A stretch of DNA of 64,000 bases, taken from an uncultured Thalassospiraceae bacterium. GTDB lineage: Bacteria; Pseudomonadota; Alphaproteobacteria; Rhodospirillales; JAPHRK01. The stretch covers positions 23,385 to 87,384 of the forward strand of contig CBDULT010000006.1 in the NCBI GenBank assembly GCA_965368165.1, in the 5' to 3' direction. The notes beneath the pieces are model-generated. The model was given only the letters and a program-made list of their open reading frames with translations, was not told where the DNA came from and did not search any database. Of the stretch, positions 10,561-54,220 are shown piece after piece. Position numbers and translations under genes: made by a program. The stretch's first letter is position 1, and every line of letters begins with the position of its first letter.

Positions 10561-10624
10561 TTAGTACGTTCAGACGCCAAGCAGGCTTACGCGTAGCGAT
10601 GCGCGGGCCATAGTCATGGCTTTG
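10561..10624 (+). repeat. Intergenic hairpin repeat, copy A (subtype 1)
   Basis: TTAGTACGTTCAGACG...CTTA-CGCGTA gcga TGCGCG-GGCCAT agtc ATGGCT-TTG; aligns with 54166-54220(-) and 48949-48987(+). Confidence 0.85.
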
Positions 10625-10654
10625 GGAGGTTTAGAGGTGACAGGAACACTTTAA

Positions 10655-10730
10655 ATGGGCCATTGAGGCCCCGCGCAATATTTGCGCGCAATCCCACGGG
10701 GCCCAAGGGCCCCGTCCGGCGACTAAGGGC
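10655..10730 (-). repeat. Intergenic hairpin repeat, copy E (subtype 2)
   Basis: GCCCTnAnTCGCCGGACGG-hairpin-TGGG-hairpin-GGCCTCAATGGCCCAT; near-identical flanks to 30448-30524(+). Confidence 0.9.
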
Positions 10731-10741
10731 AAAACTAAACC

Positions 10742-12208
10742 TTAGCTCTCAAGCATCCGCTTCAATAGTTCCACATCTTCAGCAAACGTTGGTTCAGCGT
10801 TACGGAGCTCGTCTACTTTTTTCACCGCGTGCATAACGGTAGTGTGGTCGCGGCCACCAAACTTACGGCCGATTTCAGGCAGAGAGCGTGAGGTCAACTG
10901 CTTGGCCAGGTACATGGCGACCTGACGTGGTCTTGCCACAGAACGGGCACGACGTGCGGAATGCATGTCAGAAATACGAATGTTGAAATGCTCAGCAACG
11001 CGTTTTTGGATTTCCTCAATGGTCACCCGTCGGTCATTGGCCCTCAGCAGGTCGTGAAGGACTTCCTGGGTGCTTTCCAGAGTGATATCACGACCAACAA
11101 GTTGAGAGTGGGCGACAACCCGATTTAAAGCACCTTCAAGTTCCCGAACATTGGAGGTGATTTTGTGGGCGAGGAACTCGGTGACCTTTTGTGGCATGAC
11201 CAGGTCCATGGTTTCAGATTTTGCCTGAAGAATACCAAGGCGCAATTCATAGGTGGTGGCGTGAATGTCAGCCACAAGGCCACAATTTAAGCGTGACTTA
11301 AGCCGCTCTTCCATGCCTTCCAAATCAGAAGGGGATTTATCGGCTGAAATAACGATTTGACGACCTTGGTCAACCAGCGCATTAAATGTATGGAAAAATT
11401 CTTCCTGGGTGGATTCTTTGCCGCTGATGAACTGCACATCGTCAATCATCAGCACATCGACGGACCGGAACTGTTCTTTAAAGTCTACGGTGTTTTTTTC
11501 ACGCAACGCCCGGATAAAGCGATACATGAATTTTTCAGCCGACATATAAACCACAGAGCGATTCGGAGTCGCAGAGCGAATATGCCAAGCAATGGCGTGC
11601 ATCAGGTGGGTTTTGCCCAAGCCGACACCACCATAAAGGAAGAGGGGGTTGAACTGGACAACAGAAGCTTCAGCGATTCGTTTTGCCGCCGCGTAAGCAA
11701 ACTCATTGGGTTTGCCGACAACAAAATTATCAAAGGTAAAGCGGGCATCCAAGGGGCCGCAAAGCTCGGCCCGTTCCTCAGATAAAGTATCACGATTCGG
11801 TGCGGCAGAACGGAGTTCAGGCATACCAGGTTTCGCCCCCCTCGACGGAGATGTTTTCGGCCGGGGTTGGGAAAGAGGCGCTGCAAAGGGGCCTCCTTTT
11901 GACGCCAGTGCCGCCGTTGGGCTCTTGCGTTCTTCCTGAACAGTGATGTCGAGGGATTTTATGTCCGTATTTTCCCCTCGCCATAAATTTTGCAGACGCT
12001 CGGCATAATGGGTCAAAACCCAATCACGCATGAACCTTGTCGGAACCGAGATTTTTAAGGCCCCGTCTTCGATGGCCCGAATCGCCATAGGTTTGAGCCA
12101 GCTTTTAAAAGCGGCATCGCCAATTTCGTCTTTCATCCGACCGCATATACGGCCCCATTGCTCTTCAACAATAGTGTCGATGGAAGATATGTCGTGTTGG
12201 TATCCCAT
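10742..12208 (-). CDS. dnaA: Chromosomal replication initiator DnaA
   Basis: FNPLFLYGGVGLGKTHL, IDDVQF, QEEFFHTFN, NVRELEGAL, GGRDHTTV. Confidence 0.99.
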   Translation of the reverse strand: MGYQHDISSIDTIVEEQWGRICGRMKDEIGDAAFKSWLKPMAIRAIEDGALKISVPTRFMRDWVLTHYAERLQNLWRGENTDIKSLDITVQEERKSPTAALASKGGPFAAPLSQPRPKTSPSRGAKPGMPELRSAAPNRDTLSEERAELCGPLDARFTFDNFVVGKPNEFAYAAAKRIAEASVVQFNPLFLYGGVGLGKTHLMHAIAWHIRSATPNRSVVYMSAEKFMYRFIRALREKNTVDFKEQFRSVDVLMIDDVQFISGKESTQEEFFHTFNALVDQGRQIVISADKSPSDLEGMEERLKSRLNCGLVADIHATTYELRLGILQAKSETMDLVMPQKVTEFLAHKITSNVRELEGALNRVVAHSQLVGRDITLESTQEVLHDLLRANDRRVTIEEIQKRVAEHFNIRISDMHSARRARSVARPRQVAMYLAKQLTSRSLPEIGRKFGGRDHTTVMHAVKKVDELRNAEPTFAEDVELLKRMLES

Positions 12209-12588
12209 TAGAATCCAATTCTTCCCCTAATCCCAACTCGCAAAAAAACAATTTGGGCAGAATAAAAATAAATACCGAGAGAATCGCCTTTGAAGGGCAA
12301 CCCTCAACAAAATCAAATATCAAAATCCGCTAAATTAAGGCAAATAGCCCCTCAACGGAGTTCTTCCAAAAAGAGCAAAATATAATCCTGCCGATTTTCC
12401 GGCTGTTATCAGTTGCCTATCTCAAGAGCTTTAACGTTCTGCCTTAATTGGCGTTCCTCAATCTTTATCTCGGTTGAGTTTGCCAAAAAAAATCCGTTTG
12501 CGAGCACCTTGTTTAAGTGACGCACTCTTGAAATCTTCAACTTTTATTTGCTGGCTTTCCCCGTTCTCCCCCGGTCAAAACCAACTGT

Positions 12589-12617
12589 ACTTTAGCCCCC
12601 GATAAAAACGCTTTCAA
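12589..12617 (-). promoter_or_regulatory. Putative sigma70 promoter of dnaA
   Basis: TTGAAA-17 nt-TAAAGT on the minus strand; two GANTC sites just upstream (12654-12658, 12674-12678). Confidence 0.5.
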
Positions 12618-12735
12618 TGAGATTGAAACGAGAACATGCAAAATAAACTTCTTGACTCTAAAAGAGACCTTTTGAATCACCCTCTTGGGTTTGACGATTT
12701 GGAAGGAAGTTTTTTAGCTTGCAGAACAAAGACGC

Positions 12736-12773
12736 AAAAAAGCCGCCCGTCGGATAATTCCGAGGCGGCTTTT
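12736..12773 (-). terminator. Intrinsic terminator of rpsT
   Basis: AAAAGCCGCC...GGCGGCTTTT stem followed by a U-tract on the minus strand. Confidence 0.8.
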
Positions 12774-12798
12774 AAACTCTTTTAAGCGAGTCGCTTAA

Positions 12799-13062
12799 TT
12801 AAGCGATTGCTTTAATCCGTGAGGACAGGCGGGAAATTTTCCGGGACATGGTGTTTAGTTTGACAACACCCCGGCTAACGCCACGCATCATTTCTGGTTG
12901 AGCAGCTTTTAAAGCTTCTTGTGCTTTGCCCTGATCGCCAGACTCGATTGCCAACTCGACATTTTTAACAAAAGTGCGAATTCGGCTCATGCGTGCGCCG
13001 TTTACTTCAGCGCGACGGTCATTACGACGAATACGTTTTTTAGCAGACTTGTGATGTGCCAT
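12799..13062 (-). CDS. rpsT: 30S ribosomal protein S20
   Basis: [12 protein letters not shown]...[10 protein letters not shown], 87 aa, usual position upstream of dnaA. Confidence 0.98.
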
Positions 13063-13173
13063 TCTCTAAGAACCTACGTTCGATCAATTTTCTAAATTCG
13101 GAAGCGGGGTTATATAGGGCTAAAACTCTGCCGTCAAGCGGCATAAACTGTTATATCCCCGCCTTTTTTGAGA

Positions 13174-13950
13174 TTATTTATTCTTAAATTTCGGAGACCG
13201 CTTCTCAGCGAATGCAGCCATACCTTCTTTTTGGTCTTTTGTGGCAAAGAGAGAGTGGAAAGCCCGACGCTCAAACAGAACCCCTTCACTGAGGCTGACC
13301 TCGTAAGAACGGTTAACCGATTCTTTTGCCATCATGACAGAAGGGCGGGAAAGTTTGGCAATTTCATCGGCTGTGTTGAGGGCGTCTTCAAGCAGGTCAT
13401 CAACAGGCACAATCCGGCTGACAAGGCCAGCCCGCTCGGCTTCTTCTGCGTCCATCATACGACCTGTGAGAACCATTTCCATGGCCTTAGATTTGCCCAC
13501 ATAGCGTGTCAGGCGTTGGGTGCCGCCTGCGCCGGGGATGATACCAAGTTTGATTTCTGGTTGCCCAAATTTAGCGTTGTCACCCGCCAGAATAAAATCG
13601 CACATCATAGCGACTTCACAGCCACCCCCAAGGGCATAGCCCGCAACAGCCGCAATTACCGGCTTGCGGCACAAGCGGAGTTGCTCCCAATTGTCCGTGA
13701 TAAAGTCACCTAAAAAAGCATCCATGAAAGATTTTGACTGCATGGCTTTGATGTCAGCCCCGGCGGCAAAGGCTTTGTTGCTCCCGGTGAGAACAATAGC
13801 ACCAACTTCATCGTTTGCTTCAAAGTCGATGAGGGCAGCTTTCAACTCAAGCATAAGCTCAGGGCTTAAGGCGTTCATGGCTTTCGGCCGATTTAAGGTG
13901 ATCAGGCCGACGCGTCCTTTTTGCTCGGAAATGATATTTTCATAGGCCAT
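13174..13950 (-). CDS. Enoyl-CoA hydratase (crotonase family)
   Basis: [38 protein letters not shown]. Confidence 0.95.
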
Positions 13951-13991
13951 GGTAAATTACTCCCGCAAATAAATGGTCTGGTGATTGGATA

Positions 13992-14375
13992 TTATTTATA
14001 AGGTGACAAGGCAAAGTGGACCGTGAGCATTTTATCTTGATCCGTATTTTCAGTTGGAAACTCAAGTTTAAGAGCCTCCCCTTCTCTTTGAAAAGATCCT
14101 TGTGCTTTCTCGACCCAGCCTAGCTGGGGAAGGACTATTCTATAGAAAGAAAGAACAGCTTCCCTTGCCAGGTGTCCCTGGGCATAGGATTCGACGATTC
14201 GGCCCTGAGGCGTGTCGAACTCTAGATTCCCCTCTTCTGCCATGACGAGGCCTGGCATTAAGGGCAGGTCTTCAAAACCCGTCACAAAAGCATTGGTATC
14301 CGCCAAGGCCGAAGTCGTTATGAAAAGGGCTAGGCAAAAAACGATAATTTGGTGATGTATTTTCATCATGGCCAT
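13992..14375 (-). CDS. Hypothetical exported protein
   Basis: Signal peptide ending ALA; DLPLMPGL...FDTPQGRIV...LPQLGW pattern of a small alphaproteobacterial periplasmic family. Confidence 0.8.
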   Translation of the reverse strand: MAMMKIHHQIIVFCLALFITTSALADTNAFVTGFEDLPLMPGLVMAEEGNLEFDTPQGRIVESYAQGHLAREAVLSFYRIVLPQLGWVEKAQGSFQREGEALKLEFPTENTDQDKMLTVHFALSPYK

Positions 14376-14433
14376 GGCTATAGCATAGTTTTTTTTAGGA
14401 GGTTACTTTTTATTTGGCGATTGGTCTGGGACC

Positions 14434-14534
14434 AACGACGCCTCAGATTTACGAAAAGGGCAATCGTAAATGGAAATAAACCTTACGTCAGTCCCGCTTA
14501 TGCGGAAATGACAGTTCAATATCGAGGCGTCGTT
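14434..14534. other. Multibranch inverted-repeat element downstream of mutM
   Basis: Outer stem AACGACGCCTC/GAGGCGTCGTT enclosing ATTTACGA/TCGTAAAT and GTCA..CCGC ttat GCGG..TGAC hairpins. Confidence 0.65.
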
Positions 14535-15366
14535 ATTTTTGTTTTTTAGAGCAGAAGAAGGTTGAACGCCCTGCTTGAGTAATCCGTGCGATTCCCTCCT
14601 TACAATCACACCCGGGGCAAGGCTCTCCTTCTCGTCCATAAACTTTAAAACTATGTTGGAAATATCCTAGCTCTCCAGAGGCCTGACGATGGTCCTTTAA
14701 AGATGATCCCCCCGCTTCGATGGCCTCATTCAGAACAGCGACAATTTCTGTTGTTAACAGTTCAATTCTTTGGCGGCTGATATCTGAAGCTTTCTTTTTT
14801 GGAGAAATTCCCGCCCTAAAAAGGGATTCGCAGACATATATATTGCCAAGCCCGGCGACTATCTTTTGGTCGAGAAGGGCTGTTTTGATCGGGCTGTTTC
14901 TCTTCTTGAGTTTTCCAGCCAGGACGGCACTGTTGAACTGATTGCCCAAGGGTTCCGGCCCGATATCGGCGAGAAGGGGGTGGGTTTCAAGTTCCGACTC
15001 CTCCAAAATATCCATCAGGCCGAATCGACGGGGGTCGTTAAAGCGAAGGGTTTTCTTCTCATCGGTGATGAAATCAACATGATCATGAGGGCCGGGGAGG
15101 GGTGTTTCCCCTTCTTCATGAATGGTCATGCGTCCCGACATGCCAAGATGTATCAGCAGGGTCTCGTTGGTAGATGTTTTGATGACAATATATTTAGCAC
15201 GGCGGCGAACCGACTTAATTTCTGCGCCTTCCAGGCGTTCAACAAAGCCCTGCGGGAAGGGTTTGCGCAAGTTTGGGCGGCGTTGGATGACACTTATTAA
15301 TGTGCGACCTTCAAGTACCGGAGCGATTCCACGGCAAACGGTTTCTACTTCAGGGAGTTCGGGCAT
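14533..15366 (-). CDS. mutM: Formamidopyrimidine-DNA glycosylase
   Basis: Start reassigned to MPELPEVE (15366); HLGMSG, DPRRFG, GLGNIY, C-terminal zinc finger. Confidence 0.98.
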   Translation of the reverse strand: MPELPEVETVCRGIAPVLEGRTLISVIQRRPNLRKPFPQGFVERLEGAEIKSVRRRAKYIVIKTSTNETLLIHLGMSGRMTIHEEGETPLPGPHDHVDFITDEKKTLRFNDPRRFGLMDILEESELETHPLLADIGPEPLGNQFNSAVLAGKLKKRNSPIKTALLDQKIVAGLGNIYVCESLFRAGISPKKKASDISRQRIELLTTEIVAVLNEAIEAGGSSLKDHRQASGELGYFQHSFKVYGREGEPCPGCDCKEGIARITQAGRSTFFCSKKQK

Positions 15367-15422
15367 AATTTTCTCTTCAATCCGGTATAGCGCAACGCAA
15401 TGCCATAGGCTATGTTCCGCAG

Positions 15423-16205
15423 ATGTCGAAATCAAGCCAACAAAATAGTCCTTTACCGGATGATCAGGAAACCACGCATTTCGGGTTCTCTACCGTTGCT
15501 CGGGGAGAGAAGGCCTCTATGGTGCGCGATGTTTTTGACAGTGTCGCCGGTAAGTACGACTTAATGAACGACCTCATGAGTGTGGGGGTTCATCGCCTGT
15601 GGAAAGCCGCCATGATGGATTGGCTCAACCCCCAACCGGGGACAACCCTTCTTGATGTCGGCGGTGGCACGGGTGATATTGCCATGCGCTTCCTTGATCG
15701 GGTTAAAGGTGTCGGGGATGTTTTTGTCTGTGACATTAACTATGAGATGCTCCATGTGGGGCGGGATCGCTCCATCGATAATGGCTTGTTGACGGGCATC
15801 AATTGGATTTGTGGCAATGCGGAGAAACTCCCTGTTCCTGATCAATCTGTTGACGCCTACACCATTGCTTTTTGTATCCGCAACGTGACCGATATCCCGA
15901 AGGCCTTGGAAGATGCCCACCGGGTTTTAAAGCCCGGCGGTCGGTTCCTCTGTTTGGAATTTAGTGAAGTGGTTCTTCCGGTTCTGGATAAAATTTATGA
16001 TGCTTATTCTTTCGGTCTGCTGCCTAAAATTGGGGAAATCGTCGCCAATGACCGGGAGTCCTATCAATACCTCGCCGAGAGCATCCGCCAATTCCCTCCC
16101 CAAGAAGAATTTGCCGCGATGATCAGGGCGGCAGGGTTTGAACAGGTGAGCTATCGTAATCTTTCAGGCGGAATTGCGGCTATGCACACTGGCTGGCGAA
16201 TATAA
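15423..16205 (+). CDS. ubiE: Ubiquinone/menaquinone C-methyltransferase
   Basis: [32 protein letters not shown]. Confidence 0.98.
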
Positions 16206-16208
16206 ATT

Positions 16209-17771
16209 ATGATTATCCGGTCTTTGAGAAATATTCGTCGTCTCCTTAAGGTTGCCCGCACCCTTGCGCGTTATGATGCTTTGTTTTTACTGGAACGTTT
16301 GGATGTGGCTCCCGGTGTGGTCTTCGCGGCCAAGCTTATCCCGGCGATTAAAAGTCGTTCCATTAGCAAACTGCGCCCCGGTCAACGCCTGGCAAAAGCT
16401 TTGGAGAGTCTTGGCCCGACAATGATTAAGCTCGGTCAGGCCCTCTCTACCCGCTCGGATTTGCTGGGTGAAGAAATGGCGGCGGATTTATCCGAGCTGC
16501 AAGACCGCCTTGCCCCTTTCCCGGGCCCTCAAGCCCGCACCATTATTGAGAAAGAACTCGGTGCACCGATCGAATCTCTTTTCTCTGAATTTGATGACCA
16601 GGCTATTGCGGCAGCGTCCATTGCCCAGGTTCACTTTGCTGTCACGACTGAGGGTGATGAAGTGGCTGTGAAAGTTCTGCGCCCCCATGTGAAGGACTCC
16701 TTTCGGCGTGATTTTGACATGTTCTATTGGGTGGCGGAACTGGTCGAGCGAACCAAACCTGAACTCAAAAGGCTAAAGCCTGTCGAGTCGGTGCGTTCCT
16801 TAGAAGAAACCGTTCAGTTAGAAATGGATTTGCGCTTTGAAGCCGCCGCCGCCGCTGAAATGGCGGAGAACTTCGAAGGCGACACTGATATTCATATCCC
16901 AACCATTGACTGGATACGTACGGCCCAATCTGTCATGACCATGGAACGAATTTCAGGCCTCCCAGTCGATGAGCGCGAGGAACTGGTTGCGGCAGGCCAT
17001 GACCCCATTGACGTGATCACCAAATGTGCGGGACTTTTCTTTAAAATGGTCTTTCGGGATGGTTTTTTTCATGGGGATTTGCACCCTGGAAACCTGTTTG
17101 TTCGGGATGACGGCACCATTATTGCGGTCGATTTCGGCATCATGGGCCGGGTGGATAAAAAGACCCGTCGCCATCTTGCTGAAATGCTGATCGCTTTTTT
17201 GACTAAGAATTACCGTCGCGCTGCTGAAGTTCATTTTGAAGCCGGGTGGGTCCCCGCCCATAAATCTGTGGATGCTTTCACCCAAGCCAGTCGCTCTATT
17301 GCCGAGCCCATTCTTGGGTTGCCCCAGGATCAGATTTCCATGGCGCGCTTACTGGCACAATTATTCCAGGTGACCGAATATTTCGACATGGAAACCCAAC
17401 CGCAATTACTTCAGTTGCAAAAAACCATGTTGCTGATTGAAGGCACCGGGCGCACCCTAAGCCCTCAAGCCAACATGTGGCAATTGGCTGAACCATTGAT
17501 CGAATCCTGGTTTGTGGAGAATATGGGACCCCAAGCGCGCATTCGCGATGCCGCTGAAGACTTTACCACCAATTTGCAACGCTTGCCCGTAGTGCTCGCC
17601 GGGCTTGAAGCCAATTTGGGGGCGATGGCTCAAGGGGGGTTAAAACTTCACCCCGATACCTTGGAAGCCATGGGCGGGAAGAAAAATGGAAATGGCACCA
17701 CAGACCGCTGGCTTTGGGTCGGGGTGGTTGTTGCTCTTGCCACCTCCCTTATTAGCGTGGTTTTTTCATAA
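16209..17771 (+). CDS. ubiB: Ubiquinone biosynthesis kinase-like protein
   Basis: IKLGQ, AAASIAQVH, VAVKVLRP, FFHGDLHPGN, DFGIMG. Confidence 0.97.
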   Translation: MIIRSLRNIRRLLKVARTLARYDALFLLERLDVAPGVVFAAKLIPAIKSRSISKLRPGQRLAKALESLGPTMIKLGQALSTRSDLLGEEMAADLSELQDRLAPFPGPQARTIIEKELGAPIESLFSEFDDQAIAAASIAQVHFAVTTEGDEVAVKVLRPHVKDSFRRDFDMFYWVAELVERTKPELKRLKPVESVRSLEETVQLEMDLRFEAAAAAEMAENFEGDTDIHIPTIDWIRTAQSVMTMERISGLPVDEREELVAAGHDPIDVITKCAGLFFKMVFRDGFFHGDLHPGNLFVRDDGTIIAVDFGIMGRVDKKTRRHLAEMLIAFLTKNYRRAAEVHFEAGWVPAHKSVDAFTQASRSIAEPILGLPQDQISMARLLAQLFQVTEYFDMETQPQLLQLQKTMLLIEGTGRTLSPQANMWQLAEPLIESWFVENMGPQARIRDAAEDFTTNLQRLPVVLAGLEANLGAMAQGGLKLHPDTLEAMGGKKNGNGTTDRWLWVGVVVALATSLISVVFS

Positions 17772-18363
17772 ACCCGTCTAATTGCAAGTCGAGCAAACGC
17801 TGACCTTCTGCCACTAAATCAAAGCTGCGCGCGCTCAATGACCAGCGCATGGCGAGGCCTTGAATCAAGGCGAGGAGCAAATAAGCCCCATCGTCTGGAT
17901 TGAGGTTTGGTTGGAAATTTCCGTTGGTAATGTTAGCCGCGATCAGCCGTGAGAAATTACGGTGGCGTTTGCCCATCAATCCGGCAAAAAAGGCCCGCAT
18001 TTTTTCATTCTCACTATGGAGTTCACGAGAGAATAAAATATCGGGGATTGCCGGGGTTTGCTGAATAAACCCAAGGTGATCAATCACAAGCTTGCGTAGT
18101 TGCTCAAGTGGGGGGGCCTCTTTATCTTCTCCCAACGGAGAGGCTGATTGCAAAATATCCCCAACCCGTTGGGCCACCGCTTCCCATATATCCCCTTTGG
18201 TGGGAAAATGCCGAAAGATGCCGGCTTGGGAAATCCCCACTTCCTGGGCCAGCTTTTCCGTGGTTAATCGGTCGGGGCCAATTACCCCCGCCATTTTTAT
18301 CACCGCATCGACGATTTCCGCTTTGCGGGCGGCAGCACTTTTTCGGGTCCGAACGGCTCTCAC
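17752..18363 (-). CDS. TetR/AcrR family transcriptional regulator
   Basis: N-terminal HTH (LAQEVGISQAGIFRHFPTK). Confidence 0.92.
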   Translation of the reverse strand: MRAVRTRKSAAARKAEIVDAVIKMAGVIGPDRLTTEKLAQEVGISQAGIFRHFPTKGDIWEAVAQRVGDILQSASPLGEDKEAPPLEQLRKLVIDHLGFIQQTPAIPDILFSRELHSENEKMRAFFAGLMGKRHRNFSRLIAANITNGNFQPNLNPDDGAYLLLALIQGLAMRWSLSARSFDLVAEGQRLLDLQLDGFMKKPR

Positions 18364-18467
18364 TTAAGGCACTCGCTTTTGTTTATGCAGTTTGGATGCA
18401 AGCAAAACCCTGCATCCCGTAATAGTAAGCCGCCGGATTTAGGTGTCAACAACCTGTAAGTTTCGCC

Positions 18468-18944
18468 TTAATTGGCGGCCTGGGCTTCAAGGCGGTATGC
18501 AGCATGACACCCTGTGCAGTTAAGCAGTAATTGGCCGAGCTTGGTCAAAACAGCTTCCGGGTCGCCCATGTCTTTGGCATCTAAGCTCAGATCGTCAAAA
18601 GCTTCGTGGGTGACAAACCCCAGCTTCTTGAATTCAAGAGGTAATTTACCCATCAGCGGTGTAGGCACAGCCTTCGCGGTTGTCATCCCAACTTGGTGTG
18701 CGGCCGTGGCAATGGTTTCCATATCTTTTGCAGCAAGGGCTTCAGTTATGGTCTGCACTGCCTCAAGAAACCCCCGCATTTCTTCGAGAACAAAATCTCG
18801 TTCGTCGGGATATAGCACTATAGCTGTGCGCCCATCTTTACTGGCCGTTACATTGCCTTGAACCATGAATATATAGGCCATAAACCCCATGGCACAAATT
18901 GATAGAGCCATTATTGCCCAGCAGATTTTACAAGAACTTTTCAC
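18468..18944 (-). CDS. Membrane-anchored c-type cytochrome (cytochrome c'-like helical)
   Basis: N-terminal hydrophobic helix, C-terminal CTGCH heme motif followed by YR. Confidence 0.8.
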   Translation of the reverse strand: MKSSCKICWAIMALSICAMGFMAYIFMVQGNVTASKDGRTAIVLYPDERDFVLEEMRGFLEAVQTITEALAAKDMETIATAAHQVGMTTAKAVPTPLMGKLPLEFKKLGFVTHEAFDDLSLDAKDMGDPEAVLTKLGQLLLNCTGCHAAYRLEAQAAN

Positions 18945-18962
18945 AATAATCTCCCTGTGGTG

Positions 18963-24959: not shown

Positions 24960-24999
24960 AAAAAAGGCCCGGTCTTAAATTTAAGACCGGGCCTTTTTT
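24960..24999. terminator. Bidirectional terminator, perfect 40-bp palindrome
   Basis: AAAAAAGGCCCGGTCTTAAA|TTTAAGACCGGGCCTTTTTT between convergent mch and acnB. Confidence 0.88.
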
Positions 25000-25007
25000 A
25001 TTTAACA

Positions 25008-25044
25008 GATCGCAAGGCGGTCCGCCAATCGTTTGGCGTGAGTC
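25008..25044 (-). repeat. Intergenic hairpin repeat, copy F (subtype 3)
   Basis: GACTCA-CGCCAA acga TTGGCG-GACCGCCTTGCGATC; aligns with 30552-30591(-). Confidence 0.75.
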
Positions 25045-25054
25045 TGCGTGGCAC

Positions 25055-25089
25055 TTGATTAGGATTGATCAAAGATCAATCCTAATCAA
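25055..25089. repeat. Perfect 16-bp inverted repeat
   Basis: TTGATTAGGATTGATC-AAA-GATCAATCCTAATCAA. Confidence 0.85.
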
Positions 25090-25098
25090 TTCAACAGC

Positions 25099-30447: not shown

Positions 30448-30524
30448 GCCCTCAATCGCCGGACGGTGGCAAGGGCCACCTTGGGCTTACGCCGAAATGG
30501 TTCGGCGAGGCCTCAATGGCCCAT
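30448..30524 (+). repeat. Intergenic hairpin repeat, copy D (subtype 2)
   Basis: GCCCTCAATCGCCGGAC-GGTGGC aagg GCCACC-TTGGGCTTA-CGCCGAA atgg TTCGGCG-AGGCCTCAATGGCCCAT; matches 10655-10730(-). Confidence 0.9.
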
Positions 30525-30551
30525 GAAGTATATTATTGCTAAGCTCAAATT

Positions 30552-30591
30552 GAGTTGCAACCGCAGTCCCGCGCAGCTTTGCGCGTGAGTC
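30552..30591 (-). repeat. Intergenic hairpin repeat, copy G (subtype 3)
   Basis: GACTCA-CGCGCA aagc TGCGCG-GGACTGCGGTTGCAACTC; aligns with 25008-25044(-). Confidence 0.75.
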
Positions 30592-30644
30592 CCAGGGTTT
30601 TTAGGGATATTCCCTACGCCTATGGGACACTTTAAAAGTCTAAA

Positions 30645-46062: not shown

Positions 46063-46953
46063 ATGATTACATTTGACCTCCACTACCACACAAACACTTA
46101 CCGTTCTCTTCAATCTACGCGCAAACGGCGTTTGGAGAAGCATCGGCTTTTTTTGGAAAAGACGGGTGTGGATTATGTGGCCTCAACGGAGCATGCCTAC
46201 AAACGGCCTTTAGATGCCTTTCGCTACTTGCGCGATGCCACCCACGACATCAAAACCGAAATTCTGCCTGCCGTTGAAGCGATTTCTCAAGAAGGGATCG
46301 ATATGATTTTCCTCTATGAGTCTGAGCAGGCGCTTATTGAGGGTATCCGTGAGTTAAAGCCCTTTTGCTGGTCGATCTGGGACACGGCGACCATTGCAGC
46401 GGAGACCAAAGCCCTTACCATCATCCCCCATCCTTTCACACCAGGACGCTCAGGGATTGTTGCGGGTATAGGTGTGGAAGGCTTTATGCAAATTCAGGCG
46501 CAATGTGATTACGTCGAAATACATAACGGCCTGAGCATTTTTTTGATGGATATAGCCGCTAAAAAACCTGATGCTTTTAAGGTGGATAAAACCTCAGGTA
46601 ATATTCAAAAAACTTTTAAGTTGCCGGATGAGTATATCATTGAAGGTGTCGGACAGGCGATCAGTTCCGATGCCCATCACCCAGGGCATCAGCGTATTGT
46701 TGGCAAAACAAACCTACCCCTTGAAAAAGGTGACTGGTTTGGCTTTCTAAAAAAACGCGTTAAGTTTGAAGAGGCCTTGGTGGCTGAGGAGTTTGTCAAT
46801 AACTCGACCAAATTACGCCAGCTTGTGCAAAGCGGGCGCTGTGTGTTGGGCGAATATAGCCTCAAATCCATCAAAAAAGTAAAAACCCATAACCGCAAGC
46901 GGACTGAACTCGCCGCCGGACGGGGGGCAACTAAACTTAAGGCAACCGTTTAG
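46063..46953 (+). CDS. PHP-family metal-dependent phosphoesterase-like protein
   Basis: DLHYHT, STEH, PAVE, PHPF, EIHNG, SSDAHH motifs. Confidence 0.82.
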   Translation: MITFDLHYHTNTYRSLQSTRKRRLEKHRLFLEKTGVDYVASTEHAYKRPLDAFRYLRDATHDIKTEILPAVEAISQEGIDMIFLYESEQALIEGIRELKPFCWSIWDTATIAAETKALTIIPHPFTPGRSGIVAGIGVEGFMQIQAQCDYVEIHNGLSIFLMDIAAKKPDAFKVDKTSGNIQKTFKLPDEYIIEGVGQAISSDAHHPGHQRIVGKTNLPLEKGDWFGFLKKRVKFEEALVAEEFVNNSTKLRQLVQSGRCVLGEYSLKSIKKVKTHNRKRTELAAGRGATKLKATV

Positions 46954-47513
46954 ATCGGCTCTTTTGGTTTTCTGACGATGCGATAGGTTACCCAATAACC
47001 GATCACACTCAAACCCAGGCTGTAAGGCAAACACCCAACAACAATGCTTAGGCCAAAGGTATCCCAAAGATTTGCAACCAGATCTAAAAGGGCATAAAGC
47101 GCATTCTCGTTATCGGCTGCCATCACCTTATCAAGCTGTTCGGTAAACATACCAAAACTGGAATGACCGTCGAAATCTAACAAAATAACTTTGCCAGTGA
47201 GGTAAAATAAATAATACATGGGAAGCATGGTGGCGGGGTTAGAAACCCACGACCAGGCAATAGCCAGGACCATGTTAAAGTTCCAGACCCGACGCAGGGC
47301 AAGCCAGATCATAAAGATCAGGTACATTTGCAAACCTACTGTGGGGGTGAAACCAAGCAAAAGGCCAATAGCGACTCCACGGGCGATTAATTCGGGACGT
47401 TCCCGGGCCCGCTTAACGGGGACAATGAGGCGATAATAAAGCAGCCTCAGTAATTTTGAGCTGACCCCCTCTTTGTTTCTTGCGTGTCGAGCATCGCGAA
47501 GCCATTGCCTCAT
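46950..47513 (-). CDS. DUF2062-like membrane protein
   Basis: IARGVAIG...FTPTVGLQ...WVSNPAT.LP. Confidence 0.85.
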   Translation of the reverse strand: MRQWLRDARHARNKEGVSSKLLRLLYYRLIVPVKRARERPELIARGVAIGLLLGFTPTVGLQMYLIFMIWLALRRVWNFNMVLAIAWSWVSNPATMLPMYYLFYLTGKVILLDFDGHSSFGMFTEQLDKVMAADNENALYALLDLVANLWDTFGLSIVVGCLPYSLGLSVIGYWVTYRIVRKPKEPI

Positions 47514-47657
47514 CGTCCGGTCACCATAAAAAAAAACTAAAAAATTTTCAGACCTAAGTTGTTAAGCAAACTAGAGGATTTCTGTCAAACCCCAAACACT
47601 GTCAGGGGGGCAGTTGATTTATGGGTGTTTTGCCCCCAAGTTTAAATATGAGGAACG

Positions 47658-47846
47658 GTGGCAAGTATGAGTGAAAATTTAAAAGATACTTCTTTGGTAG
47701 AATATCTCGCAGAAAAAGCTCTTGAGGATATTCGAAGGGCTCGACAATTCAAATCAACGGAATCTGGTCAACTCCTTAGGGAGGCTGAAGAACTCACCTA
47801 TCTTGCATCAAAGCTTCTTTCAAAAAGAGAATCTCTTCACAAATAA
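47658..47846 (+). CDS. Small hypothetical protein
   Basis: 62-aa helical-looking ORF with GAGG upstream of a GTG start, filling an intergenic gap. Confidence 0.5.
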   Translation: MASMSENLKDTSLVEYLAEKALEDIRRARQFKSTESGQLLREAEELTYLASKLLSKRESLHK

Positions 47847-47881
47847 AACCAAGTGGGAAAGCCTATCTGAACCATTGGTGG

Positions 47882-48082
47882 TTAGCCAATGGTGATAATC
47901 TTCGACTCAGGGCCTTCGTAAAAGTCACAACGTCCAAAGGCGTTCATAACGTGATAGGCTAATGGGCTGGACGAAAACTCAGGGTTTTTCTTTAAGAACT
48001 CACAGGTTTTACAGCCAGGCTGGTCACCACATTTAATCATTGTTCCATTTTGGGCACTCATTTTAGAAATCCTTAAAATCAT
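47882..48082 (-). CDS. Small Cys-containing hypothetical protein (start uncertain)
   Basis: ORF with C-x5-C-x2-C...C pattern, filling an intergenic gap. Confidence 0.5.
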   Translation of the reverse strand: MILRISKMSAQNGTMIKCGDQPGCKTCEFLKKNPEFSSSPLAYHVMNAFGRCDFYEGPESKIITIG

Positions 48083-48218
48083 TCATATTTTTTGGGACCG
48101 ACGGAACTGTTTTATTTTGTAGTTTTACACTTAAAAGCTTAAATTATCATCAAGTCTGTTGTTGGAATACAATGAAAATGTTACAAAATCATGAATGTGC
48201 TTCTTTTAGGAAAGCTTG

Positions 48219-48914
48219 ATGGCTCAACGGATTCTTATTGTTGAAGACGACGAAATGCTTTTAGGCATGTTGGTCACTCTTTTTGATCACTATGGCTATA
48301 AAGTAGATCAAGCCGTGACGGGCTCAGAAGCCATGAAGAAGGTTGATAAAATCCCCCCGGACATGATCCTCCTTGATCTAGGCTTGCCTGACGAAGATGG
48401 CTTGACTTTGATCCGCAAGTTCCGTTCCCGCCATGAAATTCCGATTATCGTTTCAACCGCTCGGGAAGGAATTGACGACCGCCTCTCTGCTTTGGAGATG
48501 GGGGTAGACGATTTTATTGTTAAGCCTTACGACCCGCGGGAGTTGGGGTTAAGGGTACGGAATGTTTTTTCTCGGGTGAGAGATGTTGCTAAAGGCAAGG
48601 AAGATAAAAAAATTATTGAGGCAGCAGAGTTGGAGCTTGACCTGTTCGCCCATAGTGTTTCGACGCCCGATGGCACAGCCTATGAACTTCCCCCTTCAGA
48701 ATTTCGCCTACTTTCGGCTTTGATGAATTCCCCAAATCGGGTTTTGTCGCGGGACCAGCTTCTAGATGCTATCACTACAGATAACGAGCCCCCTTCAGAG
48801 CGAATTATTGATGTCTTGATCAGCCGCTTGCGTAAAAAACTAGAGCCTTCACCCGCCAAACCAATAAAAATCATTACGGTGCCCGGCTTTGGTTACAAAT
48901 TGGCCTCTTCTTAA
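48219..48914 (+). CDS. OmpR-family response regulator
   Basis: IVEDD, LLDLGLPDEDG, KP, winged helix (IDVLISRLRKK, TVPGFGY); no adjacent kinase. Confidence 0.95.
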   Translation: MAQRILIVEDDEMLLGMLVTLFDHYGYKVDQAVTGSEAMKKVDKIPPDMILLDLGLPDEDGLTLIRKFRSRHEIPIIVSTAREGIDDRLSALEMGVDDFIVKPYDPRELGLRVRNVFSRVRDVAKGKEDKKIIEAAELELDLFAHSVSTPDGTAYELPPSEFRLLSALMNSPNRVLSRDQLLDAITTDNEPPSERIIDVLISRLRKKLEPSPAKPIKIITVPGFGYKLASS

Positions 48915-48948
48915 GCCTTTTGCGATTAGTCTTTGATCAGTTAGGGTT

Positions 48949-48987
48949 CTTACGCCAAACGTTTGGTGAGTTACAGTCGTGGCTTTG
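48949..48987 (+). repeat. Intergenic hairpin repeat, copy C (subtype 1, degenerate)
   Basis: CTTA-CGCCAA acgt TTGGTG-AGTTAC agtc GTGGCT-TTG. Confidence 0.7.
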
Positions 48988-49036
48988 CCTAAGAATGCTA
49001 CTAGCCTAATTCAGTTCACTTCGTTACATTTCGCCC

Positions 49037-50587
49037 ATGGGGTTGATGAAATCGATAGCCACAGTGGGTGGCATGACCATGACAAGCCGGATTTTGGGTT
49101 TCGTACGAGATATTCTCGTGGCGGCGGCTCTGGGTGCCGGGCCCATTGCTGACGCCTTTTTCATTGCCTTTAAAATCCCTAATTTGTTTCGACGCCTTTT
49201 TGCTGAAGGGGCCTTTAATGCCGCCTTTGTGCCTTTGTTTGCGGGCAAGCTGGAGCAAGACGGGGAGGACCAGGCCCGCCTCTTCGCCAATCAGGCCTTT
49301 TCTTTTCTTTTCTGGATTTTGCTGGTTCTGCTGATCGTCATGGAATTGGGCATGCCCTGGGCCATGATGGGCTTTGCGCCTGGTTTTATGGGTGACCCGG
49401 AAAAATTCAATCTCGCCGTTCTCTTTACCCGCATCACCTTCCCTTATCTGCTGTTTATCTCTCTGGTATCCCTCCTGGCAGGGGTGCTGAACTCACTGGG
49501 GAGGTTTGCCGCCGCCGCCGCGACTCCTGTATTACTCAATATTAATTTAATCGCTGCTATATTGCTCTTGGCCCCTGTTTTGCCCTCTCCTGGTCATGCG
49601 CTGGCTTGGGGTGTTTGTGCCGCAGGGATGATCCAATTTATCTGGTTGGTATGGCACTGCACCCGCCTCGGCATGATGCCGCGCCTTGGTTTCCCTCGGC
49701 TCAATAAAGCAGTTAAAACCCTCCTTGTGAAGATTGTTCCAGGTGCCATTGGGGCAGGGATTTATCAGGTGAATTTGGTGGTTGATATGATCATTGCTTC
49801 CCTGCTTCCCACAGGCTCCATTACCTATCTCTTCTTTGCCGACAGGGTGACCCAGCTTCCTCTTGGAGTCGTCGGTGTGGCCGTTGGGACGGCACTGTTG
49901 CCTTTGCTTTCAAGACAACTGCGAGCCAATGACGAAGCCGCAGCCAGCCATAGCCAAAACCGTGCTTTGGAATTTACGCTCTTTCTGACTATTCCTGCCG
50001 CAGTGGCTTTTGCCATTATTCCTGATCCAATTATTACGGTTTTGTTTCAGCGTAATGAATTTACTGAGCTTGCTGCAAACGCAACCGCTGCGGCCTTAAT
50101 GGTCTATGCCTTTGGTCTTCCCGCCTATGTGCTGAACAAAGGCCTGACCCCTGGTTTCTTTGCCCGAGGCGATACCAAAACGCCGATGTTTGTGGCGGCA
50201 GTTTCCATGGTGGTTAATGTGGTATTCAACCTGGTCCTCATGGGGCCCTTCCTCCATGTGGGCCTTGCCATGGCAACGGTGATTTCAGCCTGGACCAATA
50301 CAGCTTTGCTGGCGATTATTTTAAGCAAGCGCAATCAGCTTAAACTCGATCAACGGTTTCTTCGTCGCCTACCAAAAACTTTGCTGGCTTCTGCCCTCAT
50401 GGGCGGGGCTTTGTGGGGGGCGAAAACCCAACTTGAAAGCTGGGTAAATGGGGGGCAAAGTGAGCGCGTTTTAGCCTTGGTTATTCTCATTTTTACGGGA
50501 CTCGTTGTTTACTTTATCGCTGCCCAACTGACGGGTGCAGCCCGCCTTTCTGACCTCAAAGATTTTTTAAAACGTAAGTCGACTTGA
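49037..50587 (+). CDS. murJ: Lipid II flippase
   Basis: [42 protein letters not shown]. Confidence 0.97.
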
Positions 50588-50687
50588 CCCCCCCTTAAGA
50601 AGGCTCCATAAAGCGGGCGAATTTTTTATATTAATCTGGCGTGGTCCAACATGGCCGGATCAATTTCTCTCGCAAGGGTCCAAACCT

Positions 50688-51686
50688 ATGAACAGGATTT
50701 TCTCAGGCGTTCAGCCTACCGGTAACCTCCACCTTGGCAACTATCTCGGTGCAATTCGCAACTGGGTACAGTTGCAAAATAACTATGAATGTATTTTCTG
50801 TGTTGTTGACATGCACGCCATCACCGTTTGGCAAGACCCCAAGCAGTTGATCGCCAACACCCGCGAAGTTGCGGCAGCCATGATTGCTTCCGGTGTTGAT
50901 CCCAAAAAGAACGTAATCTTTAACCAGTCCATGGTTTCCGGCCATGCAGAATTGGCGTGGATTTTCAACTGTGTCGCTCGCCTTGGCTGGCTTAACCGCA
51001 TGACCCAGTTTAAAGAAAAAGCTGGCAAAAACCGTGAGAAAGCCTCTGTCGGCCTCTATGCCTATCCTAACCTGATGGCAGCAGATATCATGCTCTACAA
51101 GGCCACGCACGTGCCTGTGGGCGAAGATCAAAAGCAACATCTGGAGCTAACTCGGGATGTGGCTCAAAAGTTTAACAATGACTTTAAGAATGAGTTCTTC
51201 CCTATTGTTGAACCGTTAATTTTTGGCGAAGCGACGCGGGTGATGAGTTTGCGTGATGGCTCTAAGAAGATGAGTAAATCAGACCCTTCTGATGCTTCGC
51301 GGATTGTCATGACTGATGGGCCAGACCAGATCGCTAAGAAAATTCGTAAGGCTAAAACCGACCCACACCCCATTCCTTCCAGCAAGGAAGAATTTGAGGG
51401 TCGCCCCGAAGCGGCTAACCTGATGGGCATTTACGCGGCTCTAGCCGATACGGATATTGGTTCTGTCTGTAATGAATATGGCGGCAATCAGTTCTCAACC
51501 TTCAAACAGGCTCTGTCTGATTTGGCGGTAGAAAAATTGGGCACTATTGGTTCTGAGATGCAGCGTTTGATGGATGACCCTGCAAGCATTGATACGGTTC
51601 TGAGAGAGGGAGCTGAGCGGGCCCATGCTATTTCGGCACCAATCCTTAATGAGATTAAGGATATTGTTGGTTTCTTACGACCTTAA
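50688..51686 (+). CDS. trpS: Tryptophan--tRNA ligase
   Basis: [26 protein letters not shown]. Confidence 0.99.
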
Positions 51687-51704
51687 AATAGTCCGCGCAT
51701 AAAT

Positions 51705-51737
51705 AAAAACGCTGCTCTAAATGGGCAGCGTTTTTTT
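51705..51737. terminator. Bidirectional terminator after trpS
   Basis: AAAAACGCTGCTC-TAAAT-GGGCAGCGTTTTTTT. Confidence 0.85.
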
Positions 51738-51867
51738 ATTCAGCCGCTGGTATAACGGATTGAGGGCGTTCTTTGTCTTCAAAGAACTCATCAAGCATAG
51801 ACTTGATATTGGTGATAATCTCTTCAAGTTCTAGATCATCAAACTGATCGTCAATTTTGTTTTCCAC
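51736..51867 (-). CDS. Small acidic hypothetical protein (43 aa)
   Basis: GTG start at 51867 with GGGAGG SD about 8 nt upstream; stop abuts the terminator. Confidence 0.55.
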   Translation of the reverse strand: MENKIDDQFDDLELEEIITNIKSMLDEFFEDKERPQSVIPAAE

Positions 51868-51983
51868 CCGATTTTCCTCCCTTAGAAGATTCCTTATAGG
51901 CGTCTTGTGTAGTGTGTAAACTACTATAAAGGGTTCTAGGCCGAACCCCCCATATGGGGGGTAATTCATGTTTATTATATTTC

Positions 51984-53228
51984 TCAGGCTTTGCAGGGAA
52001 GAAGGACGGAAAATTTGCTCCCGACGCCCTCGGTGCTTTCGACAGTTAGGGTGCCCCGATGGCGGTTGATGATGTGTTTGACGATGGCGAGGCCTAGGCC
52101 AGTTCCGCCTAAATTCCGTGACCGCGCTTTATCGACACGATAGAACCGTTCCGTCAACCGCACTAGTTGATCTTTTGCAATTCCATCACCTTGATCTTCC
52201 ACAGTCACCCGAACTCCTTTGCCGGGGCTTTTAGGCAGGGGGATATTGTCTTCTGCCGTGATGGTCACAGCGGTTCCTGTTTTTCCATAGCTTAAGGCAT
52301 TGGCAATCAGATTCATAAAGACTTGGGTGACCTCATCAGCGTCACCAATAATGGGGGATAACTGATCTGGCACCCTTACCACTATGGAAATGTTTTTGTC
52401 TGCAGATTGCTTATCCAGAGCATCAACGACACTTTCTATTATCGTTTCGAGGTCAACCTTATCGTTGGGCTGGACATGTTCATTGACCTCAATTTTTGAA
52501 AGGGACAGCAGGTCTTCTATCAAACGGCTCATGCGTCCGGCTTCGGCTGACATAATGGCTAAGAACCGACCCTGGGCTTCTGGGTCTTGGCTGGCTTCCC
52601 CTTGCAGCGTTTCGATAAAACCGACCAAGGAAGAGAGGGGGGTGCGAAGTTCATGGCTGACATTGGCAACGAAGTCGGCCCGTAAATTTTCTGCGGCTTT
52701 AACGGTGGTCAGGTCATGTAAGGTCAGGAGGGCATTCCCTATTTCCCCTTGAGGGTCAGCAACAGGGACCACGTTGACCAGATAAGATCGTTCTATAGCC
52801 CCGGGTAATGAGACATCAAAAGATGTCTCTGAGCCTTCGCTTAGGGTATCGGCAACGGCTGAGAGAACCTCTGGGTGACGAATGGCATAGCCCAGGTCTT
52901 GTGATTCCATGATGCCGTCAAACTCCTTTTTGGCGGCTTTGTTGGCAAGTTTAATTTTCCGTTGGCTGTCCAGGAGCAAGACGGGGATCGGGATAGATTC
53001 TAACAGATGGGTATCTAAGCTAGGGTGAGTATTTTGTGTTGCCCTAATTTTCAATTGCCGAGGTTGCTTTAGCTCTTGCCTAAGCCATATCCCACCGGCT
53101 AAAAAACCGATCCCAAGCATAAGGGCCGGGCCGTGATCAATAAGACCTGACATTGAAAAGGCAAACAGGATAAGCAATCCCGGTGTCAGGGCAATGACAA
53201 TGGTTTTTGTATGATCGCCCATCGTCAA
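51984..53228 (-). CDS. phoR: PhoR-like sensor histidine kinase (TM-PAS-HisKA-HATPase)
   Basis: RADFVANVSHELRTPL, RLTERFYRVDKARSR..GGTGLGLAIVKH. Confidence 0.85.
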   Translation of the reverse strand: MTMGDHTKTIVIALTPGLLILFAFSMSGLIDHGPALMLGIGFLAGGIWLRQELKQPRQLKIRATQNTHPSLDTHLLESIPIPVLLLDSQRKIKLANKAAKKEFDGIMESQDLGYAIRHPEVLSAVADTLSEGSETSFDVSLPGAIERSYLVNVVPVADPQGEIGNALLTLHDLTTVKAAENLRADFVANVSHELRTPLSSLVGFIETLQGEASQDPEAQGRFLAIMSAEAGRMSRLIEDLLSLSKIEVNEHVQPNDKVDLETIIESVVDALDKQSADKNISIVVRVPDQLSPIIGDADEVTQVFMNLIANALSYGKTGTAVTITAEDNIPLPKSPGKGVRVTVEDQGDGIAKDQLVRLTERFYRVDKARSRNLGGTGLGLAIVKHIINRHRGTLTVESTEGVGSKFSVLLPCKA

Positions 53229-53237
53229 AACTACTCC

Positions 53238-54086
53238 TTAAGGTGCCCGCTTGACGAGCCGTTTGGGAGCAAGAACATCAGCAAACTTGGCGTCTGTTTT
53301 GGTCATGTTCGCTTTAGCAGCCTCCATGATATCGGCAGACATCAACATACCAGCATTCCACAGAGCAATTTGGTTGAGAGATTCGTCCACTGAATGATCG
53401 CGGCTGTAATTGATCACCTCTTTGCTGCCCACCACTGACAAAGGAGATTTTGAGGCAATCAATGCGGCAGTTTCCATCACTTTTTCCAACATCTCTTCCT
53501 GAGTTTTAAACAGGTCATTGACCAACCCGCATTCTTTCGCTTCCTCGGCATACATACGTCGCCCTGTGTAAGCGAGTTCCTTAACTTTACCCAAACCGAT
53601 CAGGGTAGGCAGGCGTTGGAGGGTTCCAACATCTGCAACCATGCCAATGTTGATCTCTTGGATAACAACAAAAGCATTTTCGGTACAGTAACGCATATCA
53701 CAGGCGGTGGCTAAATCGACACCTCCGCCGATGCAGCCGCCTTGGATGGCGGCAAGAACAGGCAGTCGGCATTTTTCGATGACCGTAAAGGTCTCTTGCA
53801 TTTCTTTAACGGTACGGTAGAGCTGTTCCCGTTTACGTCCGGGGTCCCCTTCTGCCATGTCCTGTAAAATACCCGCGAAGGCATTGAGGTCGAGTCCAGC
53901 AGTGAAGTGTTTCCCTTGAGAAGAAATAACCACAACCCGAGCTTCTGCTATATCAGATATTTCCGCAAAGACATCTACCATCTCCTGCCAGAATTCCATA
54001 ATCATGGTATTGAATTCTTTAGGGCGGCAAAGTTGAATGTGGGCGATGTGATTGCTAACGTCGAGGGCCAGAGTTTTATAAGGCAT
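53238..54086 (-). CDS. Crotonase family protein (dienoyl-CoA isomerase-like)
   Basis: HFTAGLDL, GGCIGGGVDL, DVGTLQRLP; start set to MPYKT. Confidence 0.9.
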   Translation of the reverse strand: MPYKTLALDVSNHIAHIQLCRPKEFNTMIMEFWQEMVDVFAEISDIAEARVVVISSQGKHFTAGLDLNAFAGILQDMAEGDPGRKREQLYRTVKEMQETFTVIEKCRLPVLAAIQGGCIGGGVDLATACDMRYCTENAFVVIQEINIGMVADVGTLQRLPTLIGLGKVKELAYTGRRMYAEEAKECGLVNDLFKTQEEMLEKVMETAALIASKSPLSVVGSKEVINYSRDHSVDESLNQIALWNAGMLMSADIMEAAKANMTKTDAKFADVLAPKRLVKRAP

Positions 54087-54165
54087 TCTTCTCTCCAAAG
54101 TGATTTGGAGAGAGGCTAGAACATATCAAGTTTTAAGGAAATCTTTTAATTACAGGCGTTGCTTA

Positions 54166-54220
54166 CAAGGCCACGATTGTGGCCCGCCAATGGTTTAGCG
54201 TAAGCGTTTGAACGTATTAA
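54166..54220 (-). repeat. Intergenic hairpin repeat, copy B (subtype 1)
   Basis: TTAATACGTTCAAACGCTTA-CGCTAA acca TTGGCG-GGCCAC aatc GTGGCC-TTG. Confidence 0.85.

Follow-up and report, generated by a model that had tools for sequence, protein, structure and literature searches.

Do seven short hairpins that recur between the genes of one bacterial contig belong to a single family of repeats and, if they do, are their stems preserved as DNA or as RNA, and by what are they spread? The hairpins lie in five intergenic spacers of the window, by which we mean the whole 64,000-nucleotide stretch of an uncultured Thalassospiraceae bacterium analysed here (G000:C6:23385-87384, from a 3.65-Mb draft genome, G000, of 35 contigs and 47.4% GC). 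The family is real and well above chance, and was spotted correctly from the letters in an earlier note on this DNA. We think it probable that the seven hairpins represent one old family of modular, non-coding palindromic DNA repeats that behave like repetitive extragenic palindromic (REP) sequences and bacterial interspersed mosaic elements (BIMEs). The family is best read as old and patchily spread through the Alphaproteobacteria, and the searches described below found no enzyme that would mobilise it.

The seven hairpins and their copies across the genome

A formal scan of the genome for T[CT]A followed by a CG-closed stem of 6-7 bp, with a loop of 3-4 nt and at most one wobble, found 67 sites, against 19-27 in five third-order Markov genomes. 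TTA ranks first of the 64 trinucleotides that precede such hairpins (39 of 1083) and TCA ranks sixth (28), and long conserved flanks accompany about 40 of the 67 sites. Further copies were sought genome-wide, as the earlier note had proposed, by iterated nhmmer searches from three seed alignments, one for each of the unit forms that we call T1, T2 and T3. These gave 48, 26 and 50 matches, respectively, which overlap and merge into 79 copies. Exactly seven fall in the window, all of them already in the earlier note, with sequences, places and strands exactly as written; TYA stands before the stem in six and ATTG in copy E. Two simpler searches were abandoned: BLASTn-short of the five spacers against the genome was too insensitive (30 high-scoring segment pairs (HSPs) only), and profile and covariance models were used instead, while a relaxed hairpin pattern returned 3234 matches, mostly noise. 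The comparison with Rfam that the note had suggested gave no family, with no match in the window at gathering thresholds and, for 8 element loci at E<=1, only 5 unrelated matches, all far under gathering scores.

Units are 60-95 nt long and share an asymmetric, nearly invariant skeleton that consists, in order, of a 5' box (TCAAACGCC), a slot for a variable hairpin, GGC-TYA, a covarying CG-closed stem (P2) and a second hairpin (P3). An optional variable hairpin (P0) may stand on the 5' side, before the box. The box has the form CCCTCA-nn-CGCC or CGTTCAAACGCC; by type, it reads yrCGTTCAAACGCC in T1 and T3, and CCCTCAAACGCC in T2. The slot is nearly empty in T1 (ACGCA, without a hairpin), holds a GC-rich hairpin, P1, in T2 (GGGCGCG-CTCTT-CGCGCTT) and is filled in T3 by an AT-rich insert of about 35 nt with its own hairpin inside. 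On its 3' side come (CTT)GGC-TYA-CG and then P2, the CG-closed hairpin described in the earlier note. P3 is GGCCGC-AGTC-GCGGCC-TTG in T1 and T3, with AGTC or GGTC in the loop, and GGGCC-TCAAT-GGCCC-AT in T2, with the loop TCAAT. The note had seen a core combined with three different flanking modules. Its mosaic stands, but the flanks are not three unrelated sequences; they are better seen as variants of a single skeleton, in which the slot takes a variable hairpin and the 3' part takes either of two hairpins.

The modules truly shuffle between unit types. In chimeras at C5:51316 and C5:75845 the 5' half is of type T1 and the 3' half of type T2, and in other genomes T2 5' halves are fused to P3 hairpins with the AGTC/GGTC loop. 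The P2 alleles CGCCAA and CGCGCA are each found in T1 and in T3, and all four combinations therefore exist. Because the chimeras join halves and the P2 alleles are common to T1 and T3, we treat the three forms as one family. A unit may stand alone, pair tail to tail with an unlike unit as a doublet or be part of a tandem array. Five doublets combine a T1 or T3 unit with a T2 unit across a constant gap of 21-25 nt, two of them in the window (A/E and D/G).

The copies in the window are listed below. R1 denotes matches to the T2 model and R2 matches to the full-length T1 model, and z compares single-strand DNA folding with that of shuffled sequences.

Copy A, 10565..10625, + strand: T1; 5' box CGTTCAGACGCC, linker, GGC-TTA, P2 CGCGTA/TGCGCG, P3 GGCCAT-AGTC-ATGGCT; nhmmer match C6:33949-34009; R2 match C6:33927-34025, E 3.1e-20
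Copy E, 10648..10730, - strand: T2; 5' box, P1 GGGGCCC-TTG-GGGCCCC, GGA-TTG, P2 CGCGCAA/TTGCGCG, P3 GGGCC-TCAAT-GGCCC; R1 match C6:34026-34121, E 3.6e-18; z -3.58
Copy F, 25007..25098, - strand: T1 with a long 5' P0 palindrome at 25055-25089; R2 match C6:48373-48468; z -5.50
Copy D, 30448..30531, + strand: T2; R1 match C6:53825-53921, E 1.5e-19; z -3.33
Copy G, 30553..30632, - strand: T3, that is, T1 with an insert of about 35 nt (TAGGGAATATCCCTAAAAACCCTGGG) in the slot; P2 CGCGCA/TGCGCG; z -3.90
Copy C, 48924..48987, + strand: degenerate T1/T3, with a G·T in P2 and an eroded P3; R2 matches at G000 C6:72305-72388 and at the orthologous place G001:C22:52134-52232; z -0.03
Copy B, 54163..54215, - strand: T1 with the linker deleted, the 5' box joined directly to TTA-CG; P3 GGCCAC-AATC-GTGGCC; R2 match C6:77533-77622; z -3.16

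The T1 5' box is common to A, B and F; G is T1 with its insert, and the T2 units are D and E. As to the 3' hairpins, the AGTC-loop form is found in A, B and C (degenerate in F and G) and the TCAAT-loop form in D and E. A forms the first half of the A/E doublet, whose gap is 22 nt, and D the first half of the D/G doublet, which has a gap of 21 nt and lies between two co-directional genes. Folding as single-stranded DNA beats shuffles in five of the seven copies (z -3.2 to -5.5) and is no better than shuffles in A (z -1.0) and in the decayed copy C (z 0.0). Copy C is old, because the orthologous place in a second genome of the genus, G001, also holds a copy.

Copy F is flanked on one side by an intrinsic terminator and on the other by the stop codon of a convergent gene, and its P0 is a 35-nt near-perfect palindrome, TTGATTAGGATTGATC AAA GATCAATCCTAATCAA. 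The terminator, at window 24966-24998, is a strong hairpin with A- and T-runs on its two sides; it lies between convergent genes, is kept in G001 and is directly adjoined by F. Covarying P0 hairpins akin to that of F (GATTGATC..GATCAATC, GCAAGC..GCTTGC) precede many T1 copies. In the T2 copy at G000 C12:78997-79103 an extra insertion of about 26 nt lies within the P1 slot, so the slot accepts nested insertions.

Several further pairings were considered and set aside. Of 27 T1 copies inspected by eye, only some have a CTGCG/CGCAG stem in the 5' box, and a GCC/GGC closing stem in T1 is not paired consistently. RNAalifold offered an alternative in which P2 is lengthened by GGCTT/GGGCC, and this was rejected because it involves only invariant columns. 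Inspection of the family consensus by eye revealed no integron attC core site, integration host factor (IHF) consensus or CcrM GANTC site.

Stem covariation and the choice between DNA and RNA

The stems vary between copies and yet stay almost perfectly Watson-Crick. The covariation check suggested in the earlier note came out strongly in its favour: double changes affect 6 of the 7 P2 pairs in an alignment of 18 T2 copies (score 0.338 versus 0.145 when shuffled) and 10 of the 12 P2 and P3 pairs in an alignment of 27 T1 copies (0.373 versus 0.172), and none of 500 shuffles reaches either score. In a broad set drawn from many genomes and contigs (117 matches, 107 of them distinct), double changes affect 14 of 18 pairs (0.436 versus 0.096, again 0/500 shuffles), with 317 double-change cells and almost no one-sided changes. 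Across the 107 distinct sequences, Watson-Crick pairs fill 1795 of the 1837 stem cells, and the remainder comprises 9 G·T, 4 A·C and 29 other combinations; 98.2% of cells are paired, a percentage flattered by the fitting of the alignment to the structure of the model.

The changes in the broad set are swaps of G-C to C-G, with hardly any wobble intermediates. Such a pattern is what palindromes in DNA leave behind; helices in RNA would have passed through wobble pairs as they drifted. Since the stems are near-purely Watson-Crick, with 9 G·T in 1837 cells, we favour palindromes at the level of DNA over an RNA gene. In the T2 form, two juxtaposed G·T positions in the P1 stem (GCCGG / TTGGC) are 97-100% conserved, and the skeleton thus has a defined strand.

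The earlier note had allowed for a structured-RNA family, which could comprise cis-acting stabilisers or insulators in 3' untranslated regions or between cistrons, or small RNAs. Strong covariation is what such a family would produce, and the conserved P1 juxtapositions (G·U in RNA) fit it, as do the invariance of the unpaired boxes and of the first loop base across a bacterial class, the position of copies downstream of genes and adjoining terminators, and the retention of some copies at orthologous sites. Counter to this, orientation relative to genes is unbiased (31 antisense and 24 sense copies in the co-directional spacers of G000), and one half of every doublet is necessarily antisense. 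An RNA helix should also show G·T in excess of A·C, the wobbles of the other strand, whereas the stems of G000 have 27 G·T and 40 A·C mismatches and the broad set has 9 and 4. The nearly wobble-free swaps, the frequent differences in presence or absence between congeners and the lack of any Rfam match also speak against RNA. We therefore regard cis-acting or small RNAs as unlikely, and are equally doubtful of the associated view that the stems covary under selection for RNA folding while a protein binds the invariant single-stranded boxes. Our preferred reading remains that of palindromic DNA repeats.

Placement, turnover and distribution

Of the 79 copies, 76 lie between genes; by a crude open reading frame (ORF) call, coding sequence takes up about 89% of the genome. 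The earlier description of a mosaic, non-coding, REP/BIME-like family of intergenic repeats is supported. Divergent spacers hold 6 of the 76 copies, compared with 26.5% of all spacers >50 nt (p = 7e-5). In other words, promoter spacers are avoided and copies lie mostly downstream of genes. The genes that copies bracket are housekeeping or ordinary ones (smc, truB/rbfA, metK, pgk, cmk-rpsA-ihfB).

Comparison of filled and empty spacers, also proposed in the earlier note, was made against G001, whose genes are about 73-82% identical to those of G000. In G001, site F is empty (16 nt, where G000 has 96 nt), as are site B and site D/G, where the entire doublet is absent; site C is shared; and site A/E holds a different 128 nt (G001:C22:12724-12851, orthologous to window 10561-10737). 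In the reciprocal set of 20 G001 loci, nhmmer found no element in two (L199 and L201); of the remaining 18, seven are shared with G000, seven are empty in G000 and four are unclear. Three doublets, D/G and two more, are present or absent as wholes between the two genomes. Orthologous sites thus differ between congeners through the gain or loss of copies. At 10 polymorphic sites neither a target motif nor a target-site duplication recurs consistently, in junction DNA too diverged for a firm reading; short direct repeats at two junctions, GCTAG at site B and AACAG at site F, are anecdotal.

The earlier note had thought the family lineage-specific, which proved wrong. R1 matches occur in 22 of 61 genomes of the order (18 of 47 genera), with 1 to 55 matches each; for the other orders of the class, a sample of 149 genomes yielded R1 matches in 7. 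R2 matches occur in 17 of the 61 genomes, with 53 in G000 and 20 in G001, and elsewhere mostly cover the core only. The exact pattern of the T2 3' half was found in 17 stretches of named records, from two Novispirillum itersonii strains, a Telmatospirillum metagenome-assembled genome (MAG) and Rhodospirillales and Rhodospirillaceae MAGs, and some of these form tandem arrays, with one unit every 106-109 nt or so. A pattern for the skeleton found 57 stretches in a collection of viral contigs. One 47.9-kb provirus record (G210) has 22 R1 matches, in arrays that repeat about every 108 nt; from one unit to the next the skeleton is identical and only P1 and P2 change, by complementary swaps. A GC-rich copy had no blastn match in a plasmid collection, and R1 had none on pSymB (1.68 Mb) of S. 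meliloti 1021, which we take to be a carrier of the RIME repeats discussed below.

At L061, L069 and L070 (Novispirillum itersonii), at L167 and in G210, arrays of 3-5 units run head to tail and repeat every 106-109 nt. The units of the G210 provirus each end in part of a terminator-like hairpin and a T-run.

Candidate mobilisers and relation to known repeats

HUH/Y1-type enzymes use a short fixed motif directly 5' of a hairpin, and the earlier note had suggested that such an enzyme recognises the element. It had also stated that no cognate transposase lies in the window, which holds. Elsewhere in G000 there are two identical genes, of 244 aa, for a Y1 enzyme resembling the REP-associated tyrosine transposases (RAYTs), one at C6:136557-137399 (L001:1362-2204) and one on C28 (L002). 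They score 58.6 bits against PF01797 and 74.3 against NF047646, the latter under the family cut-off of 80. The repeat that flanks them differs from the element: ATCAAAGGGGTC lies upstream and GACCCCTTTGAT downstream, and each gene has two upstream copies of CATCAAAGGGGTC and inverted copies downstream (three at C6, two at C28). The 12-mer GACCCCTTTGAT has 59 exact copies in the genome, clustered on C2, C4, C6 and C11 among others. Together, the Y1 genes and the 12-mer look like a separate system of REP/RAYT type, in which the RAYT itself is duplicated, which is unusual.

Could the element nonetheless be a true REP family, with inverted doublets that correspond to REPINs, moved by a RAYT, or a palindrome-associated transposable element (PATE) of IS200/IS605 type, its enzyme reading TYA beside a single-stranded hairpin? 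The fixed TTAC or TCAC directly 5' of the hairpin suits the geometry of these enzymes, the inverted doublets resemble REPINs, and a RAYT-like gene is present. Against this stand the different repeat beside both Y1 genes and the absence of the element from the surroundings of the Y1 genes examined: a T2 search of ±1.5 kb around 11 Y1 loci from 10 genomes, run with filters off and E up to 1, gave no match at any of them. Nor does the presence of Y1 track that of the element across genomes. Among the 61 genomes, 11 have both, 11 the element only, 13 Y1 only and 26 neither, and the element-only group includes four 100%-complete genomes with 35, 16, 14 and 10 copies. Orientation relative to the replication strand, judged from GC skew, shows no bias (14 to 12 for T2, 22 to 27 for T1/T3). 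A PATE would call for TnpB, and the genome has none (PF07282). Finally, the family fails on the defining REP/RAYT features, a GTAG or CGTC tag (PMC3733652) and a cognate RAYT. Taken together, we consider mobilisation of this kind very unlikely, and recognition of the element by HUH/Y1 enzymes finds no support in these comparisons.

A different possibility is a MITE (miniature inverted-repeat transposable element) derived by deletion from an insertion sequence of DDE type, in which the doublet would be the element and the outward TCAAACGCC boxes its imperfect terminal inverted repeats. Doublets of about 165-200 nt are indeed gained and lost whole, their outward-facing 5' boxes are alike in sequence, and the direct repeats at sites B and F would fit as well. 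As candidate terminal inverted repeats, only the TCAAACGCC boxes of doublets face outward. However, most copies are single units or head-to-tail arrays, and the polymorphic sites show no consistent duplication or target. No insertion sequence with matching ends emerged: self-BLAST of G000 revealed no parent of that kind and few long repeats (16 non-self HSPs of at least 400 bp), and the genome has no IS110-family gene (PF01548). Where copies bracket 400-4000 nt, the genes between them are all ordinary or housekeeping ones. Beside copies in other genomes, 65 ORFs at 20 loci include no recurring transposase or other family, and many ORFs at GC-rich loci are without a Pfam match and may be spurious. 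The derivation from a DDE-type element is, in our judgement, highly improbable.

To our knowledge, the spread of most bacterial intergenic palindromic repeats is understood only where a RAYT has been linked to them. The family described here is abundant and modular, its skeleton is conserved across a class from 47% to >70% GC, and it is not tied to a Y1 transposase. We put forward, tentatively and as a possibility on the less likely side, that it is a class-wide, RAYT-independent hairpin element of the Alphaproteobacteria, with a skeleton that is the site of an unrecognised DNA-strand-specific enzyme or host factor and stems that are actively re-templated. The proposed recognition site is CCCTCA..CGCCGGGCG..CTTGGCTYACG, including the two fixed G·T juxtapositions. 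Re-templating is suggested because neighbouring array units differ by clean complementary swaps. On our main and more probable reading, that of a REP/BIME-like family, the hairpins would matter as DNA, either extruded or single-stranded, or as palindromes kept perfect by intrastrand templating, rather than as strand-specific RNA. Copies would spread via a trans-acting factor that reads the invariant skeleton, the mobilising enzyme would be other than the RAYT-like Y1 transposase of the genome, and recombination between copies would reshuffle modules and so create the mosaic. Effects on host transcripts, such as stabilisation of 3' ends or insulation between genes, may arise as by-products.

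If true, the tentative proposal of a RAYT-independent element would mean a new mechanism by which palindromic repeats of bacteria are mobilised or maintained, rather than one more REP. Two features could give the family more weight: its asymmetric skeleton, which does not vary, and the clean swaps that distinguish the stems of adjacent units in an array. The patchy distribution, the tandem arrays and the gain and loss of whole doublets provide a clean comparative system, which could reveal a second route of mobilisation. In practice, the units should be masked in predictions of small RNAs, terminators and riboswitches in Rhodospirillales, and are useful as markers for strain typing.

Several points weigh against the reading of the family as mobile palindromic DNA. 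Mobility is inferred from presence or absence and copy number only, because the searches brought up neither an enzyme that moves the units nor a target motif or target-site duplication, and the junctions lie in poorly conserved spacers; deletions could explain part of the pattern. The invariant P1 G·T pairs would be natural in RNA, and the strand asymmetry they mark is not explained by the DNA view. The context statistics rest on crude ORF gene calls, and the broad alignment (A5) owes part of its paired percentage to the structure to which it was fitted.

How, then, does the family relate to known repeats? It resembles the REP/BIME of E. coli and other Enterobacteria in that short GC-rich extragenic palindromes occur in many copies between the genes of operons and after genes, in that unlike units are inverted with short linkers to form mosaics, and in the presence of stem variants within one family. 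It differs in lacking the GTAG tag and a linked RAYT, in its longer units (60-95 nt, with 2-4 hairpins and the invariant asymmetric skeleton), in the head-to-tail tandem arrays that are common in other genomes, and in its span of a class rather than a genus or family. With the REPIN-RAYT systems of Pseudomonas and others it shares inverted hairpin doublets that are gained or lost as one unit and a mostly vertical inheritance with some copies common to species; here, in contrast, the halves of a doublet are unlike, and Y1 adjoins another repeat and does not track the element.

In the literature searched, the hairpin family is nowhere described, with the catalogued RIME, Sm-repeat, CIR (Caulobacter) and Bru-RS (Brucella) not compared by sequence. 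By description, RIMEs (Rhizobium) and Sm-repeats (Sinorhizobium) are alphaproteobacterial intergenic mosaics with large palindromes and of unknown function, and to that extent like the family here (PMC2573895). The GTAG- and CGTC-tagged REP superfamilies are described as single hairpins with a short conserved tag at one end, a CCA tail and stems of 8-9 bp whose first two positions are A/T; CGTC repeats are mostly alphaproteobacterial, and dimers and clusters occur (Di Nocera et al. 2013, PMC3733652). Measured against that account, the likeness lies in a hairpin with a short conserved tag at one end and in dimers and clusters. In the present family the tag reads T[CT]A and is followed by a closing CG pair, the stems are 6-7 bp, there is no CCA tail, and the hairpin sits inside a larger multi-hairpin unit.

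Two minor observations concern the A/E site. The 128 nt that take the place of the doublet in G001 (L099) are unrelated to it and form CCCTCCCC...GGGGAGG hairpins, which may be another repeat family. In G000, TTATCCACA lies just upstream of copy A, at window 10548-10556, and fits the DnaA-box consensus; this may be chance. It is also conserved in G001, and thus belongs to the flank and not to the element.

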